A DNA stretch of 16,592 bases from a virus. Position 1 is the first letter of the stretch; each line of letters opens with the position of its first letter. Of this stretch, positions 1 through 6,067 are shown piece by piece. Both the position numbers and the translations under genes were made by a program. The stretch covers positions 1-16,592 of the IMG/VR virus record IMGVR_UViG_3300033514_000074, one strand, 5' to 3'. The notes under the pieces are model-generated. The model searched no databases and was not told the DNA's origin. It worked only from the letters and a program-made list of their open reading frames with translations.

Positions 1-498
1 ACAAGAATCAAATAATCCACTTGGTATTGATGTTAATAATATACAATTAGCAAAAGTACTTGTAAAATTAGTTATTTTAGCAAACCCATTATTAATATCT
101 GAAGGAATAGTAGATAAATTTCCACAACCATAAAAATTTAATTGTTTAAATCCAACATTACCCCAATTTAAAACTTTACTAATTGTAGTTCTTATTGTAC
201 CAGCATTATTTACATAAAATGTTTCACAGATACCTTGTATTATTAATGTATATATACCTGGATTTGTATATATATGTGTACATCCTGTATCAGTATAAGA
301 TGTAATTGTTTTTAATCCACTATTATCACCATAATCTACTGTATAATTATAAACATAACCACTTAAATGTGGTATAGTTATTGATTGATTTGAAGAAGTA
401 GTAGTTATTTCTAATATAAATCTTAAATCTGGTAAGGTTAAATTAGTTAAATTACCATTTAATTTAATTAAATTTCCATTTAATTTTAATAATGCCAT
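1..498 (-). CDS. Partial CDS (N-terminal 166 aa; gene continues past window start). BspA-type leucine-rich-repeat-like surface/adhesin-type protein
   Basis: Manual translation of the minus strand from ATG (rc of 496-498) to position 1 has no stop: MALLKLNGNLIKLNGNLTNLTLPDL...KVLNWGNVGFKQLNFYGCGNLSTIPSDINNGFAKITNFTSTFANCILLTSIPSGLFDSC. Repeating F-x-(G/N)-C-x-x-L-(T/S)-(T/S)-IP units are typical of BspA-type LRR (LRR_5 / DUF285-like). An in-frame stop lies upstream at 520-522. Not in the supplied ORF track because it is edge-truncated. Confidence 0.5.
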   Translation of the reverse strand, partial: MALLKLNGNLIKLNGNLTNLTLPDLRFILEITTTSSNQSITIPHLSGYVYNYTVDYGDNSGLKTITSYTDTGCTHIYTNPGIYTLIIQGICETFYVNNAGTIRTTISKVLNWGNVGFKQLNFYGCGNLSTIPSDINNGFAKITNFTSTFANCILLTSIPSGLFDSC

Positions 499-554
499 TG
501 TTACAAATAATATTTTCTTCTATATATAAAAAAAGAGATTAAAAATTAATCTCT

Positions 555-899
555 TTATATTCTTGGAAAAGCAGAATTATTTCCCATTCCACCAAAATTC
601 TTCATTGCACTACCAGGATTAAACCCACCCATCATTTTAGATGGATTGAAATTACTCATATTTCCATATTTGCCTTGTTCTGCTTCATCTTGTTTCTTTC
701 TCTGTTCTGTTTCTTCTTTATTCTTTTCATTTAATAACTTAACATATTCTTCAAATTCCCAATAAAACCAAGTATTTACAACAGTTGTATCTATACTCAT
801 TTGAGACATCCATTCAAATTTATTTTTCAGAATACTTTGAATATCAGTTTGAAATAATGAAAATATTCTTGCATTAATTTTATTAAGATTATTTTCCAA
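555..899 (-). CDS. Hypothetical protein with Gly/Asn/Met-rich low-complexity C-terminus
   Basis: 114-aa ORF. Its start overlaps the upstream gene's stop by 11 nt (operonic). No recognisable domain. The C-terminus GKYGNMSNFNPSKMMGGFNPGSAMKNFGGMGNNS is low complexity. Confidence 0.4.
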   Translation of the reverse strand: MENNLNKINARIFSLFQTDIQSILKNKFEWMSQMSIDTTVVNTWFYWEFEEYVKLLNEKNKEETEQRKKQDEAEQGKYGNMSNFNPSKMMGGFNPGSAMKNFGGMGNNSAFPRI

Positions 900-1854
900 A
901 ACTTCCCATGATATTTGGGAGTTCGAATAAAGTTGATGCCCCGCCGGGAAACGTTAAGTCAGTGTGCACCTCCAAACCACACTCTTTACAATTCATCTTC
1001 AATCCTTTAATACCAACTGTCATTTTATTGACAACTTCATTAAGTCCTTGAAAAAGAGTTAAATCTTCCATATCTTTAAATTCTTTTAACTTTGCTTTAA
1101 GAGTTTCTTCAGTAATGAAATTTTTATCATGTAATAAGAATGGCATAATTTTTAAAAATGCAACATCTGGTTTTTTATCTACTTGAACATTTCTCTTAAT
1201 CTCTGCATAAAAATCTTCTTGTATTCCAATTGTAGGTGCTGCTAATTGATATGATACACCTTTATAAATCAATTCATATGTTTGTGTATCTTTATTATAA
1301 AATTTATCAATTGCTGGATTTGGTTCATGTAATTCAAATGTACTTGGTACTTCTGAACCAGGTGTTGATCTAAATGGAATATGAAATTCATTACCACAAG
1401 AACAAGTTACTTCTTTTGTTAAAGTATTACCACCTTGAAAAGTTAATTCCCTAATCATAAATATTAAAAATATTCTATCTGAATCTTTTATATCTTTATA
1501 ACTACCTTTACTACCATCTGGATGATAAAAAATTATATTTCTTGATAATAATTCATTCATCTTTTCAGTGATATCCACAAAATTTAAATCATCAATCATA
1601 GAATATGCTTGAATTTCAGAAACCTTTGCAGCTCTAATACTTATTTTAGTACCTCTTTTATAAAATCTACCTGCAGGTAATATACCTATATTAATATTAG
1701 AATATTCAATACTCGGTATATTATAATGATTATTATTATTTAAATCACTTGAAGTTGTTTTTGTAGTAGTATTAGTAATTACAGTACCTTTATCCTGTAA
1801 TAATTTTTCTAAATATTCTTGATTTTTTTGTTCTTTTTGTTCTTTTTGATTCAT
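889..1854 (-). CDS. Hypothetical protein with two C-x-C / C-x2-C ... His zinc-binding-like motifs
   Basis: 321-aa ORF. Contains TCSCGNEFH and CKECGLEVH (paired Cys plus His, zinc-ribbon-like). N-terminus is Q/K/N/T-rich low complexity. No confident family assignment. Contains a local GC-rich patch (936-975). Confidence 0.5.
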   Translation of the reverse strand: MNQKEQKEQKNQEYLEKLLQDKGTVITNTTTKTTSSDLNNNNHYNIPSIEYSNINIGILPAGRFYKRGTKISIRAAKVSEIQAYSMIDDLNFVDITEKMNELLSRNIIFYHPDGSKGSYKDIKDSDRIFLIFMIRELTFQGGNTLTKEVTCSCGNEFHIPFRSTPGSEVPSTFELHEPNPAIDKFYNKDTQTYELIYKGVSYQLAAPTIGIQEDFYAEIKRNVQVDKKPDVAFLKIMPFLLHDKNFITEETLKAKLKEFKDMEDLTLFQGLNEVVNKMTVGIKGLKMNCKECGLEVHTDLTFPGGASTLFELPNIMGSFGK

Positions 1855-1926
1855 AATTAAAATGATTATTTTTTACACTTATTATATATAAGTGAATAGT
1901 GATCTTAAATGAAATTTTTTATTAAA

Positions 1927-2826
1927 TTAAATTATAAAATTAAGTTTATCTTGAATATTATCAAGATAAGATATTCTAATGAGATTTATATTATTATTTT
2001 TACAATAATTTGTTTTAATTAAATCTCTTTTTTGTTGTTCTATAAATGTTTCTGTTCCACCAAATATTTCTCTTGGTTCAAAATGTTGAATACCATCATA
2101 TTCAATACAAATATTTTTTTCATATAAATAAAAATCAAAAGGTAATGGTTTAATGTATTTACAATCTTTAAATCTTTTTTGTATATTAAAATTTATATTA
2201 TTATTTTCTAATATTTTTTTAATTAGTTTTTCACCTTTACTTTCATTACAATATGGACATCCTTGACCTTGTAAATGTACATCAGGTCTTTGTGAAAATA
2301 TTCCATGAATAGGACATTTTATATCTACTTCTATCTTGTTATTAATGTAATCATTTGATGGATATTTATATTTATTTGAATGAATTACATTTGCTTTATT
2401 AATAAATATTTCAATGGTTGATTTTAAATTATTTTGACATTTTGGACATTTTTGACCTTGTATGTGATTATTTGGTTTTTGTTCAAATATTCCATGTTTT
2501 TTACATATAATTTTTACTTTTGTTTCTGAATCAATATAATCAACTAAAGAATAATCATATTCTAAATTATGTTTTTTATTTGCCTTTTTTATAAAAATCT
2601 CTTCATTATATCTTAATTTATTATGTCTTCTTATTTCACCACATTCAGGACAACCATGACCACTTAAATGTGTTTTTGGTACTTGTTTAAATACACCATG
2701 TAAAGGACATATTATTTCTACTTCTGTTATACCATTTATATAATTAACTAAAGAGTAATCATAAAAATTAGTATGAACTAAATTTCCTTTAATTTTAAAT
2801 GTATTATTTGTTAATTTTGTAAACAA
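1927..2826 (-). CDS. Putative (homing-type) endonuclease: three tandem ~65-aa Cys4 zinc-ribbon repeats plus a C-terminal PD-(D/E)xK / Vsr-like nuclease fold
   Basis: Three repeats of Y-x-YS-x-V-x-Y...V-x-I-x-C-x2-HG-x-F-x-Q-x-P-x2-H-x-x-G-x-x-GCP-x-C...E-x-FI-x-KAN. C-terminus is PFDFYLYEKNICIEYDGIQHFEP...FGG...QKRDLIKTNYCKNNNINLIRISY (D...E-Y-D-G-x-Q-H...K signature of restriction-endonuclease-like fold). Free-standing, with its own intergenic regions. Confidence 0.6.
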   Translation of the reverse strand: MFTKLTNNTFKIKGNLVHTNFYDYSLVNYINGITEVEIICPLHGVFKQVPKTHLSGHGCPECGEIRRHNKLRYNEEIFIKKANKKHNLEYDYSLVDYIDSETKVKIICKKHGIFEQKPNNHIQGQKCPKCQNNLKSTIEIFINKANVIHSNKYKYPSNDYINNKIEVDIKCPIHGIFSQRPDVHLQGQGCPYCNESKGEKLIKKILENNNINFNIQKRFKDCKYIKPLPFDFYLYEKNICIEYDGIQHFEPREIFGGTETFIEQQKRDLIKTNYCKNNNINLIRISYLDNIQDKLNFII

Positions 2827-2920
2827 GTTGTTAAATAATTATTTGATTAATAATATAAAAATATAAAACTATATATTAAAGTTGAAAATTCATTTTTTAT
2901 ATATAAAAATAAAAAATATT

Positions 2921-3322
2921 ATGACAGAAAAATTCCAAACTTATAGAATATTACATGTTGAGGATGAAAAATTATTCATCACTATGGTAAAATTAATGCT
3001 TAATGACAAGATGTTCATTATTGATAATGCTGAAAATGGTAGTGAAGCTGTTGATAAAGCATTTAAAAATATTTATGACATAATATTAATGGATGTTTAT
3101 ATGCCAATAATGGATGGTAGAGAAGCTGCTAAAACTATTAAATCTATGTTACCTGATTTACCAATAGTGGCATTATCTGCTTGTGAATTATCTGATTTAG
3201 CAGGTCTTCCACAATTTGACCATATTATTAGAAAACCAGTTACTAAACAAGTGTTATGGGATTCAATTATTGAAATTGCTGATGAATATATCCAATTTAA
3301 AAATGACAAAAAGAAAAAATGA
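2921..3322 (+). CDS. Stand-alone CheY-like response-regulator receiver (REC) domain protein
   Basis: Sequence is MTEKFQTYRILHVEDEKL...NGSEAV...YDIILMDVYMPIMDGREA...LPIVALSA...FDHIIRKP. All REC hallmarks are present: acidic pocket (EDE), phospho-acceptor Asp in LMD, conserved Ser/Thr in ALSA, and Lys in KP. The ORF track starts at a TTG (2882); the ATG at 2921 preceding the conserved core is the more likely start. Its stop overlaps the next gene's ATG (ATGA). Confidence 0.75.
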   Translation: MTEKFQTYRILHVEDEKLFITMVKLMLNDKMFIIDNAENGSEAVDKAFKNIYDIILMDVYMPIMDGREAAKTIKSMLPDLPIVALSACELSDLAGLPQFDHIIRKPVTKQVLWDSIIEIADEYIQFKNDKKKK

Positions 3323-3410
3323 TAAGTAAATTTAATCAATATATTAATGAAGGTATTAGAGATAAAATGACACCTAAATCAGAAGATGATATTAGAAAAT
3401 CTTTAGAAAA
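3319..3410 (+). repeat. Copy 1 of ~60-90 nt DNA repeat encoding the conserved N-terminal leader
   Basis: The 21-mer gataaaatgacacctaaatca is identical to copy 2. About 80% identity over ~90 nt with 3876-3965. Confidence 0.7.
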
Positions 3411-3873
3411 GTTACCACCTTTAGAAAGAATTACAAAAATCTATCATAATAATGCACAAGATTTATATACTAGGGATGAAATAAATGAAATATTAGAACA
3501 TATAAATCCAGTAGGTATATTAGAAATCGCAATATATTATTTACAAGATTTAGAATTGGTTAAAAAATTAATTAAAGAAGGGGTTGATTTATCTGTTGAT
3601 AATAATGCTTTTTTAAAAGCCATTATTATGGATGACCATTATGATAATAATATAGTTGATATTCTTGATGGTGATTTAACTAAAGAATATAAGCATCTTA
3701 CTGAAAGTTGGTTTACATGTCATTGTTTAGATGAAAGTGAAGAAGATCAAGAAAAAATTATGAATTTTTATAAAGAAGTTCTTAAATTATTTCTTACAGA
3801 CCCAAGAGTATATAAAAAATTAACAGCAATTGAAATAGTAGGGTATCGTACCTTATTAGGAATAAATCAATAA
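3319..3873 (+). CDS. Paralog 1 of leader-bearing family (MISKFNQYINEGIRDKMTPKSEDDIRKSL...), weakly ankyrin-like
   Basis: 184 aa. Shares a ~30-aa N-terminal leader with the next two genes. The central region LELVKKLIKEGVDLSVDNNAFLKAII is ankyrin-like. ATGA overlap with the upstream REC gene. Confidence 0.6.
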   Translation: MISKFNQYINEGIRDKMTPKSEDDIRKSLEKLPPLERITKIYHNNAQDLYTRDEINEILEHINPVGILEIAIYYLQDLELVKKLIKEGVDLSVDNNAFLKAIIMDDHYDNNIVDILDGDLTKEYKHLTESWFTCHCLDESEEDQEKIMNFYKEVLKLFLTDPRVYKKLTAIEIVGYRTLLGINQ

Positions 3874-3875
3874 AT

Positions 3876-3965
3876 ATGAAAAACTTTAACCAATTTGTAA
3901 ATGAAGGTGTTAGGGATAAAATGACACCTAAATCAAAAGATGATATTAAAAAATCTTTAGATGAA
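3876..3965 (+). repeat. Copy 2 of leader-encoding DNA repeat
   Basis: The first 29 nt, atgaaaaactttaaccaatttgtaaatga, are identical to 4883-4911. Confidence 0.75.
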
Positions 3966-4886
3966 TTGGCACCACAAGATAGGATTCAAACAATATATAA
4001 AAATCAAGTACAAAATTTATATACAGATAAAGAACTTAAAGATATATTTAATCAATTACCAAAAGACAAAAAATTTCCTATAATACTTAATTTTGGAGCT
4101 GGAAATTTATATACAGAAGATGAACTAAAACCTTATTTTAAAGATTTATCACCTAAAGAAAAAATAGGACAAGGAACAGAATATAATTTATTGTGGGTTA
4201 TTAAAGATGGTGTAGAACATTTACCAAAAAGGTCATATAATTGGTCAACAGTTTTAAATCGTGCAATATTTAGAGATATTGAAATTGTAAAATATTTATT
4301 GGATAATCTTACTATTAGACCAGATGATTTAAATTGGGCTATTACTGCATCTGATAAAATTGATAAAATTGATAAAAATCAAAAAGAAATAAAAAAATTA
4401 CTAACAGATAAGAAAAAAGAAATTTTATTAGGTAAAGAAAATTTTAATGATATATTAAAACATGCCTGTAAAGTAGGTGATTATAATTTAGCAAAAAGTG
4501 CAATAAATAATGGTGCTAATATAGAACATAAACAAGGAATATATCTATTATATGATGCAATAGATTCAAATAGTATAGAAATTATAAAAATGTTATTAGA
4601 TCTCGGTGTTAAGACTGATTCTCAAAATATATATCCTACACCAATAGGAAAAGCCATTAAAGATAATAATAATGTTGAAGTAGTAAAATTATTAGTAGAA
4701 TATGGTGCAAGAATTGAATTTTCTAATTGGGGTTTATTAAAAGATATAATAGATTGGATAAAAAAAGGTGGAAAAGATGAAATGATTAAATATTTAATGA
4801 CTAAAAATGATGTGGTAAAAGAAAAAATACAAGAACATATTAATGAACTTCAAGAAGAAACAAAATTATTCCAAAAATATTTATGA
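3876..4886 (+). CDS. Paralog 2: ankyrin-repeat protein with conserved N-terminal leader MKNFNQFVNEGVRDKMTPKSKDDIKKSL
   Basis: 336 aa. The C-terminal half has clear ankyrin repeats (ILKHACKVGDYNLAKSAINNGANIEHK...; IEIIKMLLDLGVKTDSQN...; VEVVKLLVEYGARIEF). It starts 2 nt after the previous stop, and its stop overlaps the next ATG. Confidence 0.7.
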   Translation: MKNFNQFVNEGVRDKMTPKSKDDIKKSLDELAPQDRIQTIYKNQVQNLYTDKELKDIFNQLPKDKKFPIILNFGAGNLYTEDELKPYFKDLSPKEKIGQGTEYNLLWVIKDGVEHLPKRSYNWSTVLNRAIFRDIEIVKYLLDNLTIRPDDLNWAITASDKIDKIDKNQKEIKKLLTDKKKEILLGKENFNDILKHACKVGDYNLAKSAINNGANIEHKQGIYLLYDAIDSNSIEIIKMLLDLGVKTDSQNIYPTPIGKAIKDNNNVEVVKLLVEYGARIEFSNWGLLKDIIDWIKKGGKDEMIKYLMTKNDVVKEKIQEHINELQEETKLFQKYL

Positions 4887-4955
4887 AAAACTTTAACCAA
4901 TTTGTAAATGAGGGTATTAGAGATAAAATGTTACCTAAATCAGAAGATGAATTAC
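4883..4955 (+). repeat. Copy 3 of leader-encoding DNA repeat
   Basis: 29-nt identity with copy 2, then about 85% identity through gataaaatg...cctaaatcagaagatga. Confidence 0.75.
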
Positions 4956-5653
4956 AATCTGCTTATAATAATTTAATTAAAGATATAAATAATCCATTAT
5001 CTACATATCCATATGGAATTAATAGGGAATTTCAAGAGATTGCCGATTTATTTAAACTAAATAAAAAAGATTTACATTTAATTACAGAAGATAATGATAA
5101 ATGGAATTTATTAGATGAATTATTTACAAAATATACAGAAAATATAGAGAATAAAATAATTGAAGTAAAAGAAACAGAAACAGAATATGGTGGTGAATGG
5201 GTATGTTGGTCTGATAAAAAATTAGCATATTGGAATAGTAATGAAATAAATGATGTTAATGCATGGATATTCTATAAAAATGATTTTGTAAATGAATCTA
5301 TTAGAGATAAAATGTCACCTAAATCAGAAGAAGATATATTAAATTCTTTAAAAGGATTATCAACACATCAAAAATTAATGTTAGGTTGTAAGAATGATAG
5401 TGTATTAGCAGTTAAATTAGTAATGGAAGAAGATGAACAAAAAAAGGATGAAGAAGATGAAAGTATCATACATATAGATGATGAATGGCCACTTAGAAAA
5501 GCATGTAAGGAAGGTTCTCTTGAAGTTGTTAAATTTTTATTAGATAATGGTGCTGATGTCCATGCTTGTGATGATGATGCATTTTGGGTAGCAAGAGGAA
5601 ATAGACCATTAATTAAATTATTAAATAGTTATAAGTATAAAAAAAAGAATTAA
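4883..5653 (+). CDS. Paralog 3: two leader modules (aa 1 and aa ~133) plus a C-terminal ankyrin repeat
   Basis: 256 aa. N-terminus is MKNFNQFVNEGIRDKMLPKSEDEL. An internal second copy is YKNDFVNESIRDKMSPKSEEDILNSL. The C-terminus LRKACKEGSLEVVKFLLDNGADVHACDDDAFWVARGNRPLIKLL is a canonical ankyrin repeat. Confidence 0.7.
   Translation: MKNFNQFVNEGIRDKMLPKSEDELQSAYNNLIKDINNPLSTYPYGINREFQEIADLFKLNKKDLHLITEDNDKWNLLDELFTKYTENIENKIIEVKETETEYGGEWVCWSDKKLAYWNSNEINDVNAWIFYKNDFVNESIRDKMSPKSEEDILNSLKGLSTHQKLMLGCKNDSVLAVKLVMEEDEQKKDEEDESIIHIDDEWPLRKACKEGSLEVVKFLLDNGADVHACDDDAFWVARGNRPLIKLLNSYKYKKKN
5279..5350 (+). repeat. Copy 4 (internal) of leader-encoding DNA repeat
   Basis: gattttgtaaatgaatctattagagataaaatgtcacctaaatcagaagaagat inside gene 4883..5653. 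This indicates module duplication or fusion. Confidence 0.65.
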
Positions 5654-5664
5654 TAAATTAATTC
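5647..5664. terminator. Weak AT-rich hairpin between convergent genes (possible bidirectional terminator)
   Basis: gaattaat-aa-attaattc is a perfect 8-bp inverted repeat. It spans the stop of 4883..5653 (+) and the stop of 5658..6008 (-). Stem is AT-only, so it is weak. Confidence 0.2.
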
Positions 5665-6008
5665 CTTTCTATTAAATGTCTATCTCTTGTATAACATTTA
5701 AGTTTATATTCATAATATGTTGAATCTTTATAATATGTACTGAATATTAAATAATAAATAGTTTTCTTATTTTCTTTAGTAACATATCTATCAATTGTAT
5801 AACCATCTTTTTTAGTATATTCATAATAAACCGGAATCCAATCATCCATTGAAATTGAATCCATTTTTAAATAATAAAATGTTTTATTTATATCAAAAAG
5901 TGCTTTATCTTTCTGATCAATTGTATATGTTTCATTATATAAAATAAATGACCTTGTTTGTACACAACCCATCATAAATATAAGAGTAATTAAAAAGAAT
6001 TTTTTCAT
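5658..6008 (-). CDS. Small Tyr-rich putative lipoprotein / secreted protein
   Basis: 116 aa. The N-terminus MKKFFLITLIFMMGC has a hydrophobic signal peptide ending in a lipobox-like M-G-C. The mature part is Tyr/Lys/Asp-rich. This suggests a bacterial (not eukaryotic) host. Confidence 0.45.
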   Translation of the reverse strand: MKKFFLITLIFMMGCVQTRSFILYNETYTIDQKDKALFDINKTFYYLKMDSISMDDWIPVYYEYTKKDGYTIDRYVTKENKKTIYYLIFSTYYKDSTYYEYKLKCYTRDRHLIERN

Positions 6009-6032
6009 TAAAGTTTTTTATTCTTATATATA

Positions 6033-6063
6033 AAAAAACCATTTGATTTTTCAAATGGTTTTT
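6033..6063. terminator. Bidirectional Rho-independent terminator
   Basis: aaaaaaACCATTTGAttttTCAAATGGTttttt is a 9-bp stem with a 4-nt loop, an A-run on one side and a T-run on the other. It sits immediately downstream of the minus-strand MVP gene stop (6068). Confidence 0.7.
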
Positions 6064-6067
6064 ATTT

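Follow-up and report, generated by a model that had tools for sequence, protein, structure and literature searches.

We analyzed a 16,592-nucleotide stretch of phage DNA (IMG/VR virus record IMGVR_UViG_3300033514_000074, positions 1 to 16,592; "the window" refers to this entire stretch) in which three consecutive open reading frames (ORFs), ORF1, ORF2 and ORF3, encode proteins with a common start of ~25 residues, M(K/I)..FNQ(F/Y)(V/I)NE-G(V/I)RDKM.PKS. This start is composed of a short leader, which resembles the capsid targeting sequence (CTS) of the internal proteins of phage T4, and a second conserved peptide, which we refer to as the box. The records closest to the window are 'uncultured phage' genomes of 634-735 kb (LR756501-4 and LR745206, 45-49% identity), and the top tblastn match of its tail region is LR756501 (735 kb, 49% identity). 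These genomes define the Mahaphage clade, with Bacteroidetes as predicted hosts (PMC7162821). Judging from these similarities, the source of the window is a Mahaphage-clade huge phage. Its GC content is 25%.

The three genes follow a response-regulator gene in a translationally coupled four-gene block on the plus strand. The response regulator and ORF1 overlap by ATGA, ORF1 and ORF2 are separated by a gap of 2 nt, and ORF2 and ORF3 again overlap by ATGA. An earlier description made from the letters alone (the sequence-only reading) had recognized three consecutive coupled genes with a common leader, and the junctions and shared N-termini bear this out. The features of the block are as follows.

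2921..3322 (+), response-regulator receiver gene (Pfam Response_reg 3.3e-16), first of the four-gene operon
3319..3873 (+), ORF1, 184 aa: leader, box, and helical cargo without an assigned family
3319..3351 (+), ORF1 leader MISKFNQYINE, one residue longer than in ORF2 and ORF3 (F5, Y8, I9, E11)
3352..3393 (+), ORF1 box GIRDKMTPKSEDDI
3876..4886 (+), ORF2, 336 aa: leader, box, three helical units, and ankyrin repeats
3876..3905 (+), ORF2 leader MKNFNQFVNE (F4, F7, V8, E10)
3906..3947 (+), ORF2 box GVRDKMTPKSKDDI
4883..5653 (+), ORF3, 256 aa: two leader-bearing modules fused
4883..4954 (+), ORF3 N-terminal leader MKNFNQFVNE and box GIRDKMLPKSEDEL
5279..5338 (+), ORF3 internal copy: leader remnant NDFVNE and box SIRDKMSPKSEEDI (aa 133-152, in a flexible inter-domain linker)

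Ankyrin payloads had been proposed for these genes. This holds for ORF2, with ankyrin repeats at aa 165-282 (nt 4368-4721; Pfam Ank_2 4e-13, 50.2 bits), and for ORF3, in which an alpha/beta N-domain (aa 21-131) is followed by an ankyrin C-domain (aa 149-255). ORF1 gave no Pfam ankyrin match at E<=0.1 and is not counted as an ankyrin protein; its AF2 model is helical, at low confidence (pLDDT 65). In the AF2 models, residues 1-21 of ORF1 are low-pLDDT coil and the ORF3 copies (aa 1-17 and 138-144) are low-confidence coil outside or between the folded domains. The first helix begins at S-E-[ED]-D-I (SEDDI in ORF1). In ORF2, the box tail and the next ~70 residues (aa 25-98, window 3948-4170) form three ~30-residue units ahead of the ankyrin repeats, with the pattern (LYT)x[DE][DE][IL]K..[LF]..L.P.[DE][KR][IF], also written LYT-x-[DE]EL-K..L.P.[DE]K.

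The cassette is plastic, as the leader-gene content differs between the window and its close relatives. A 63-kb JGI contig (L098) has the same synteny and only two leader genes, with ORF2 absent; these encode a 183-aa homologue of ORF1 and a protein (P0021) made up of the ORF3 N-domain, a YINES junction and a different C-terminal module. A second relative (L006) has three different leader genes, one of which (115 aa) is equal to the C-terminal half of ORF3. Since the two halves occur separately in these relatives, we conclude that ORF3 is a fusion of two leader-bearing genes. These differences support the cassette shuffling suggested in the sequence-only reading, and the loci of T4 internal proteins are likewise plastic. 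A contig search for ORF2 returned only one 3.8-kb contig.

The first 29 nt of ORF2 and ORF3 are identical, as had been noted, and identity extends to 60 of the first 66 nt. Such conservation could in principle reflect a nucleic-acid-level feature, either an initiation ramp for a Bacteroidetes host lacking Shine-Dalgarno sequences or a recombination or regulatory cassette, with the peptide incidental; an AT-rich genome and variable cassette content in close relatives would fit. However, AGY as well as TCN codons encode the Ser residues of the box, and codons 2-11 of the leader show the same synonymous usage as gene bodies. Thus, selection acts on the peptide rather than on DNA or RNA, and we reject a signal at the nucleic-acid level. 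In addition, internal copies are conserved away from gene starts, and the coupling of ORF2 and ORF3 leaves no upstream regulatory space. Overall, we consider this explanation highly improbable.

The bipartite tag and the T4 capsid targeting sequence

The first part of the tag is a decapeptide, M-K-x-[FY]-x-x-[FY]-[IV]-N-E, which also exists in a shorter variant (MKYLK[ST][FY]NE). The second part is the box, [SG]-[VIL]-R-D-x-M-x-P-K-S-x-[ED][ED]-[IVL]. The 35 tag copies taken from the window and the IMG/VR loci comprise 22 at N-termini and 13 inside proteins; the internal copy in ORF3 (aa 133-152) had already been spotted in the sequence-only reading. Internal boxes sit at flexible domain junctions and are mostly preceded by (K)TNE|S. 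They number up to 13 per protein, so the box is not only an N-terminal signal. A 1591-aa protein (P0036) has 13 boxes, each opening a new module, and in a 1220-aa protein of locus L056 the ankyrin modules are separated by boxes, 6 of them strict and 3 relaxed. From their organization, these multi-box proteins look like polyproteins. N-terminal copies conserve the aromatics at positions 4 and 7, and most internal copies do not. A logo of 249 leader sites gives [YILVF]-N-E|[SGNA]-[LIV], with Y, I, L, V or F at P3 in 227. Another possibility considered is that translation starts internally at the invariant box Met.

In T4 (AF158101), ipII and ipIII start with MKTYQEFIAE, as the sequence-only reading had given for IPIII, and ipI starts with MKTFKEF. 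Residues 4 and 7 of IPIII set targeting, and residues 8 and 10 set processing (PMC9026906); the aromatic or hydrophobic targeting determinants at 4 and 7 are those of Mullaney & Black 1996, as summarised in PMC9026906. The leaders of the window occupy the extreme N-terminus (aa 1-10, or 1-11 in ORF1). Those of ORF2 and ORF3 carry all four determinants and that of ORF1 has the same pattern shifted by one residue, and the proposed resemblance of the first 10 residues thus stands. The Glu is followed by Gly in all three proteins, giving the ending of a hydrophobic residue, any residue and Glu before a small residue that had been likened to the T4 gp21-type motif. The match is closest in loci L035 and L037, where MKTYQEFINE|G is identical to T4 MKTYQEFIAE|A at 9 of 10 positions.

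A regular expression for the decapeptide-type N-terminus was applied to T4, Flavobacterium phage MaF61, and box and non-box ORFs. It recovers ipI, ipII and ipIII and one spurious ORF among the 89 ORFs of T4, and 1 of 50 ORFs of MaF61 (a 50-kb region that has no head genes and was used as a control only). The rate is 81% for box proteins, 21.7% for non-box ORFs of the same loci, and 2.8% for pseudo-N-termini at internal Met residues.

A 58-aa leader query, searched by tblastn against 50,697 phage records, gave only one weak match (E=5), to the T4-like Serratia phage PS2; ORF2 as the query gave nothing. PS2 has tandem genes whose products start with MKSFNEFINE|S and MKSFNSFLNE|G, near tRNA genes and a homologue of e.6, and T4 ipII and ipIII have such neighbours too. 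The maturation site of PS2 gp23 is GFLNE|AEIGG, compared with SFLTE|AEIGG in T4. As both the leader and the gp23 site of PS2 have Asn before the Glu, the P2 residue co-varies between leader and capsid site.

The leader therefore has much in common with the CTS of T4 IPI, IPII and IPIII (and the propeptide of Alt), which are cut by gp21: a ~10-residue N-terminal peptide in which positions 4 and 7 are aromatic, position 8 is hydrophobic and a small residue follows the Glu at position 10; attachment to otherwise unrelated cargo; tandem genes in plastic regions; in the clade, a head module of the T4 type (portal, protease and Gp23); and, at the motif level, a P2 residue that matches the capsid site of the lineage itself. 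The differences are also clear. Here, a second and more conserved box follows the putative cut, junction-plus-box copies are also internal (as many as 13 in one protein), Asn takes the place of the Ala or Thr of T4 at P2, carriers include enzymes, and there are ~100 carriers per genome compared with 3-4 in T4, one to two orders of magnitude more. The tag described here is known from sequence alone. Relative to the T4 CTS, what is new is the bipartite tag, its polyprotein-like use, its huge expansion and its occurrence in the Mahaphage clade.

Distribution and cargo of the tag

Leader searches matched 10 IMG/VR loci and 145 metagenome stretches (80 of the latter were retrieved for analysis), and gave one match in 185,579 GTDB genomes, on a 7.5-kb contig of a metagenome-assembled genome. 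The tag is essentially absent from cellular genomes. A homologue search with the leader profile returned only 20 short proteins; the full hidden Markov model (HMM) scan of 1.84e9 cluster representatives was far richer, with 1,097 proteins at E<=1e-3, of which 311 reach E<=1e-10; multiple copies per protein are common. Chance falls far short of explaining the shared motif. Neither leader nor box has a family in Pfam or PHROGs, and the bipartite tag is not described in these resources or in the literature searched. The family is known only from uncultivated phage and metagenome sequences and is defined by its tag, not by its cargo.

The sequence-only reading had suggested searching for the leader on other cargo, and this was borne out: with the tag masked, 126 complete box proteins fall into 41 cargo clusters. 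Pfam domains among 116 distinct box proteins are ankyrin (39, 34%), DUF7448 (3), PolyA_pol of the CCA-adding type (2) and HD (1), and about 60% have no Pfam domain at all. Where there is one, the tag is an N-terminal extension ahead of the domain start.

This diversity bears on the idea that the shared start reflects common descent of ankyrin-like paralogues and is an N-terminal fold cap with no signal function. The largest cargo cluster (68 of 126) is indeed ankyrin-related, and the box tail SxEEIxxxLxxLxPxEK resembles the first of the three helical units of ORF2. However, the 41 clusters are unrelated, most box proteins have no Pfam domain, and the box also occurs with HD, PolyA_pol and DUF7448 domains. 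Furthermore, the box is predicted to be coil rather than part of a fold, and its conservation far exceeds that of any cargo (outside the box, mean column identity in the set A3 is 3%). A family-specific fold cap is largely refuted by the cargo diversity and we reject it as very unlikely.

Other phage-encoded ankyrin proteins, a module often proposed for host manipulation, include ANKp of the sponge-symbiont 'ankyphages' (bioRxiv 10.1101/608950) and the ankyrins of phage WO. Unlike the proteins considered here, in which ankyrins are one of at least 41 cargo types, those proteins are not known to have been proposed as packaged in capsids. To our knowledge, no shared CTS-like leader or box has been reported for them.

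Many small leader proteins of LR756501 carry the sequence DPYGEE(N)W soon after the leader rather than RDKM.PKS, for example those encoded at L109:25924-26205(-), L099:29019-29330(+) and L101:26484-26762(-). This suggests that the second box is lineage-specific.

The head module and a candidate role for the tag

Searches by phmmer with T4 gp20, gp21, gp22 and gp23 identified no head genes in any leader-selected locus. We therefore examined the whole of LR756501, where a head module was located at 72-78 kb, and an IMG/VR search with its capsid protein yielded 68 head-module loci. One of these (L139) shares a 135.6-kb contig with the box-bearing locus L010. The relevant features are:

LR756501 71969-73795, portal (Portal_T4 1e-69)
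LR756501 73913-76336 (L107:23913-26336), protease-scaffold fusion, 807 aa (Peptidase_S77 6.7e-5; phmmer with T4 gp21 0.004)
LR756501 76415-78166, Gp23 capsid protein (1.8e-25)
L139:7517-9913, protease-scaffold
L102:30457-30708 (LR756501 730457-730711), leader-capsid hybrid ORF, 84 aa, MKRVITFTEYLNES|DGGGGVAFATANGNGMGNIVAPTVGSVP

The protease-scaffold and capsid proteins of this module share the NE motif of the leaders. Among 50 distinct protease-scaffold homologues, [LIVT]-N-E-[SAEQ] is conserved near residue 20, matching T4 gp21 PMLE|S by eye, and DPGFSSA[KR]ME.[KR].[LIM]NES|LGFNE[SN]|ANFRIY is near-invariant right after the protease domain. Proteases of the gp21 type are processed at the C-terminal end (PMC9026906, PMC5694885). 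All 51 capsid proteins contain W[MI][SA]EYAEMH[QS][ML]NE|NV[GA]Y. The density of NE[SGA] is 7.8-fold, and of NES 13-fold, higher in the protease-scaffold than in other proteins, in homologues that are not independent and with positions that are conserved. The L139 protease-scaffold has 5 NES compared with 0.56 expected, and its VKTNES|V is the same junction as the KTNES|[IV]RD of box proteins. As the leader logo equals the NE motif of the protease-scaffold and capsid proteins, the leader most plausibly ends in the prohead-protease site of the clade.

The scaffold-like portion has an acidic/Gln-rich stretch and ~12 tandem 14-residue units, YSEY[IL]AE..D..I, and Y[ILV]AE occurs on average 11.7 times per protein in 64 protease-scaffold homologues. 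The resemblance of these units to YQEFIAE of the T4 CTS suggests that the leader imitates a scaffold unit. They are comparable to the T4 core proteins gp22, gp67 and gp68, which are cut to small peptides at L/I-x-E, with EQLIAE at the gp22 N-terminus. Here, however, the scaffold is fused to the protease and its repeats are regular 14-mers, and the leader genes do not encode scaffold proteins. In the 84-aa hybrid ORF of LR756501, a leader is fused at NE to a copy of the capsid segment that comes after the capsid's own NE. One member of the scanned set matched Pfam Gp23 (2.8e-5), and by its sequence appears to be this ORF.

From the anatomy and distribution of the motif, its predicted disorder, the diversity of its cargo and the head-protein motif, we infer docking, cleavage, packaging and injection along the following lines. 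The first part of the tag, a short amphipathic peptide, would dock the protein on the scaffolding core while the prohead assembles, and a T4-gp21-type (S77-type) prohead protease would then cut after the Glu in the context [hydrophobic]-N-E|[S/G]-[LIV], for which a leader-type substrate peptide would be MKNFNQFVNEGVRDKMTPKS. Proteins with internal junction-plus-box copies would be 'beads-on-a-string', cut into separate pieces inside the head. Each released piece would begin with the box, [S/G]-[VIL]-R-D-x-M-x-P-K-S, and stay in the head, and the box may have a second function on the mature protein, such as ejection or retention with DNA or core. Ankyrins and the other cargos would reside inside the virion, and would be delivered with the DNA if the analogy to T4 extends to ejection. 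We put the chance that the tag is a targeting propeptide cleaved by the prohead protease somewhat above even.

Head and ejection proteins with propeptides are also found in the large myoviruses phiKZ, 201phi2-1 and SPN3US, where the protease (gp175/gp245) cuts at S/A/G-x-E or A-x-E. These phages resemble the system proposed for the Mahaphage clade in having many head-internal proteins, Glu at P1, several cleavages in one protein, a protease processed at its C-terminal boundary, and paralogues with identical N-termini (SPN3US gp53/gp54, PMC5694885). The propeptides there are mostly >100 residues long and lack a common short leader, in contrast to the 10-residue leaders seen here, which do not conform to that type (S/A/G-x-E, >100 aa). 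The P3 residue is small there and hydrophobic at the N-termini here; only the internal T-N-E junctions come close. There is no sequence relationship to the box.

The beads-on-a-string architecture and the wide range of cargo, including enzymes, would also be expected if the tag were a cleavable propeptide or polyprotein junction that the S77-type protease, or a paralogue of it, processes in the cytoplasm. This would be a form of general maturation, comparable to that of eukaryotic-virus polyproteins, and would involve neither capsid targeting nor injection. SPN3US-type giant phages are reported to encode a diverged prohead-protease paralogue (PMC5694885); none was found here, where no search aimed at one was made. 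However, T4-family proteases are known to work inside proheads. Moreover, the aromatics at 4 and 7, which set targeting in T4, are kept at N-termini and not in most internal copies, a pattern that fits targeting plus cleavage. Cytoplasmic processing is thus improbable in our view.

We also evaluated the possibility that the tag is an uncleaved linear docking motif, in which an amphipathic helix and peptide recruit proteins to a partner other than the prohead core, with repeated boxes providing multivalent binding. Candidate partners are a phage chaperone or assembly factory, a shell formed by the major vault protein (MVP) of the clade, or a host factor. The strongest conservation is in a 12-residue linear peptide within predicted disordered linkers, as is typical of binding motifs, and the repetition of the box within single proteins would be accommodated. 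Leaders occur on metabolic and translation enzymes, which are unexpected in capsids, and the window encodes an MVP homologue 415 bp from the cassette that is conserved in LR756501. This explanation leaves unaccounted for both the ending in a hydrophobic residue, N-E and a small residue, common to the protease-scaffold boundaries and the capsid protein, and the fit, position by position, to the determinants of the T4 CTS. The analysis identified no candidate for the partner. We regard a docking motif of this kind as unlikely, although it deserves consideration.

Several observations weigh against the cleaved targeting propeptide. Conservation peaks at RD.M.PKS, on the C-terminal side of the proposed cut, which is more than a protease site normally needs, and the box has no T4 counterpart; on this point the CTS analogy of the sequence-only reading applies to the decapeptide and not to the box, which is also found internally. 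Internal junctions often have Thr, not a hydrophobic residue, at P3. A candidate gp21-like protease and scaffold, which that reading proposed to look for, were located in LR756501 and L139, with a Pfam Peptidase_S77 score (22.9 bits) under the gathering threshold of 27. There are no head genes in the window, so the candidate protease is seen in relatives only, and no box protein was found within any of the 68 head-module loci. The cut sites at NE in the head proteins are themselves predicted by analogy with T4. In an automatic pairwise alignment of the N-termini of T4 gp23 and the LR756501 capsid protein, the NE site is not opposite T4 E65; the correspondence depends on a GY(N)AT block matched by eye and, given this ambiguity, we take the capsid-site match at the motif level only.

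The breadth of leader carriers is a further difficulty. Box-less decapeptide-like leaders occur on 103 of 964 ORFs (10.7%) of LR756501 (7% of ORFs in the 68 head loci), and carriers in that genome include CoaE, cytidylyltransferase, DeoC and radical-SAM proteins, an odd set for a capsid. In contigs of the box lineage, glutamyl-tRNA synthetase (GluRS) also carries a leader. The enzyme domain starts after the leader extension in each case considered (aa 24 in GluRS, aa 14 in CoaE, aa 20 in cytidylyltransferase). Two glutamyl/glutaminyl-tRNA synthetases (L005:2217-4010 and L039:12529-14334) have an 18-30-residue extension before the canonical RFAPSPTG, starting MK[IV]LK[ND]YN[DQ]F and ending LNE|[SA]. 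A CCA-adding/poly(A) polymerase-type enzyme, with its domain from aa 39, has an extension MIKKYNDMNQLNER that is leader-like but looser. PPK2 and some other enzyme matches may be false positives of the regular expression. The sequence-only reading had held that a leader found genome-wide on proteins clearly unrelated to virions would count against it; this is partly the case, with ~10% of LR756501 ORFs and ~22% of non-box ORFs in box-lineage loci carrying leaders, enzymes included. Either the packaged proteome is unusually broad, or the role of the leader is more general.

The first of these options leads to a broader proposal: a T4-like leader on about one tenth of the Mahaphage proteome would preload the very large capsid with a 'starter proteome' of ~100 proteins that the prohead protease cuts from precursors and polyproteins and that is co-injected, the box being a new retention or ejection tag. 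Among the carriers would be ankyrin arrays, HD hydrolases, GluRS, CCA-adding enzymes and enzymes of the CoA pathway. We offer this tentatively and consider it doubtful. If it is true, sequence would directly reveal which proteins uncultivated huge phages package and inject.

Metagenomes are the only source of huge phages of >500 kb, whose genes mostly lack an assigned role. The tag may let packaged, and perhaps injected, proteins be predicted from sequence. If the tag is a capsid signal, it would place more than 1,000 protein clusters at once, and these proteins would probably act in the first seconds of infection. The T4 CTS principle would then also hold in a very distant, uncultivated clade, and this would suggest that larger genomes are accompanied by more co-delivered proteins. 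Engineering parts for loading phage heads could be derived from the bipartite tag and its use in polyproteins. If it is instead a general docking or processing signal, it would still be a previously undescribed and very abundant linear motif of phage proteomes.

Other features of the window

The leader cassette sits in an insertion amid conserved tail genes. The same insertion holds two homing/HNH-type endonuclease genes, a lipoprotein gene and the MVP homologue. The remaining annotated features are:

1927-2826 (-), homing-endonuclease-like gene (PHROG HNH endonuclease 5.5e-83)
6068-8548 (-), MVP homologue, 826 aa (MVP_shoulder 1.6e-26, Vault_3 2.8e-10)
8627-9301 (-), Cys-rich HNH-like gene
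9459-10022 (-), tail tube, 187 aa (PHROG tail tube 3.4e-9)
10185-13616 (-), tail sheath, 1143 aa (PHROG tail sheath 2.1e-78)
14355-15788 (-), peptidase-family protein, 477 aa (PHROG phrog_4191 7.1e-70), with the internal run RRKKKKKKKSRNKSK
15809..16147 (-), small ORF, 112 aa, with the leader-only start MKIKKFNES and no box
16172..16423 (-), small ORF, 83 aa, with the leader-only start MKIKKFNEN and no box

The sheath and tube had been called T4-like, in agreement with the PHROG matches and with a phmmer match of T4 gp18 to the sheath (7.6e-12). The two endonuclease-type genes break up the tail module, and in L139 endonuclease genes similarly lie between the portal, protease and capsid genes. 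The MVP homologue is also kept in LR756501 (17179-19608, E 1e-242) and in L098; phage MVPs were already described in a 2023 preprint (10.1101/2023.11.10.566534). The peptidase-family protein is not a prohead protease; its homologues are conserved in L098 and L072. The two small leader-only ORFs adjoin each other.

A sigma-70 promoter scan around the cassette performed no better than shuffled sequence (43 compared with 36.5). A perfect 13-bp hairpin with T-runs on both strands was identified at 6034-6063, between the end of the MVP gene and the start of the lipoprotein gene. It is the sole terminator-like site in 2600-6100 (2 found compared with 0.6 expected, both strands counted).

The syntenic relative L098 has the same response-regulator gene upstream of its own leader genes. 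In the related locus L096 (GCA_043956695.1, JBINOA010003474.1, a 248-kb contig), genes for a hybrid histidine kinase/response regulator, a 924-aa ankyrin protein and a peptide deformylase adjoin that of an HD-domain leader protein (P0024). The receiver-only response regulator of the window may be part of a phage two-component circuit.

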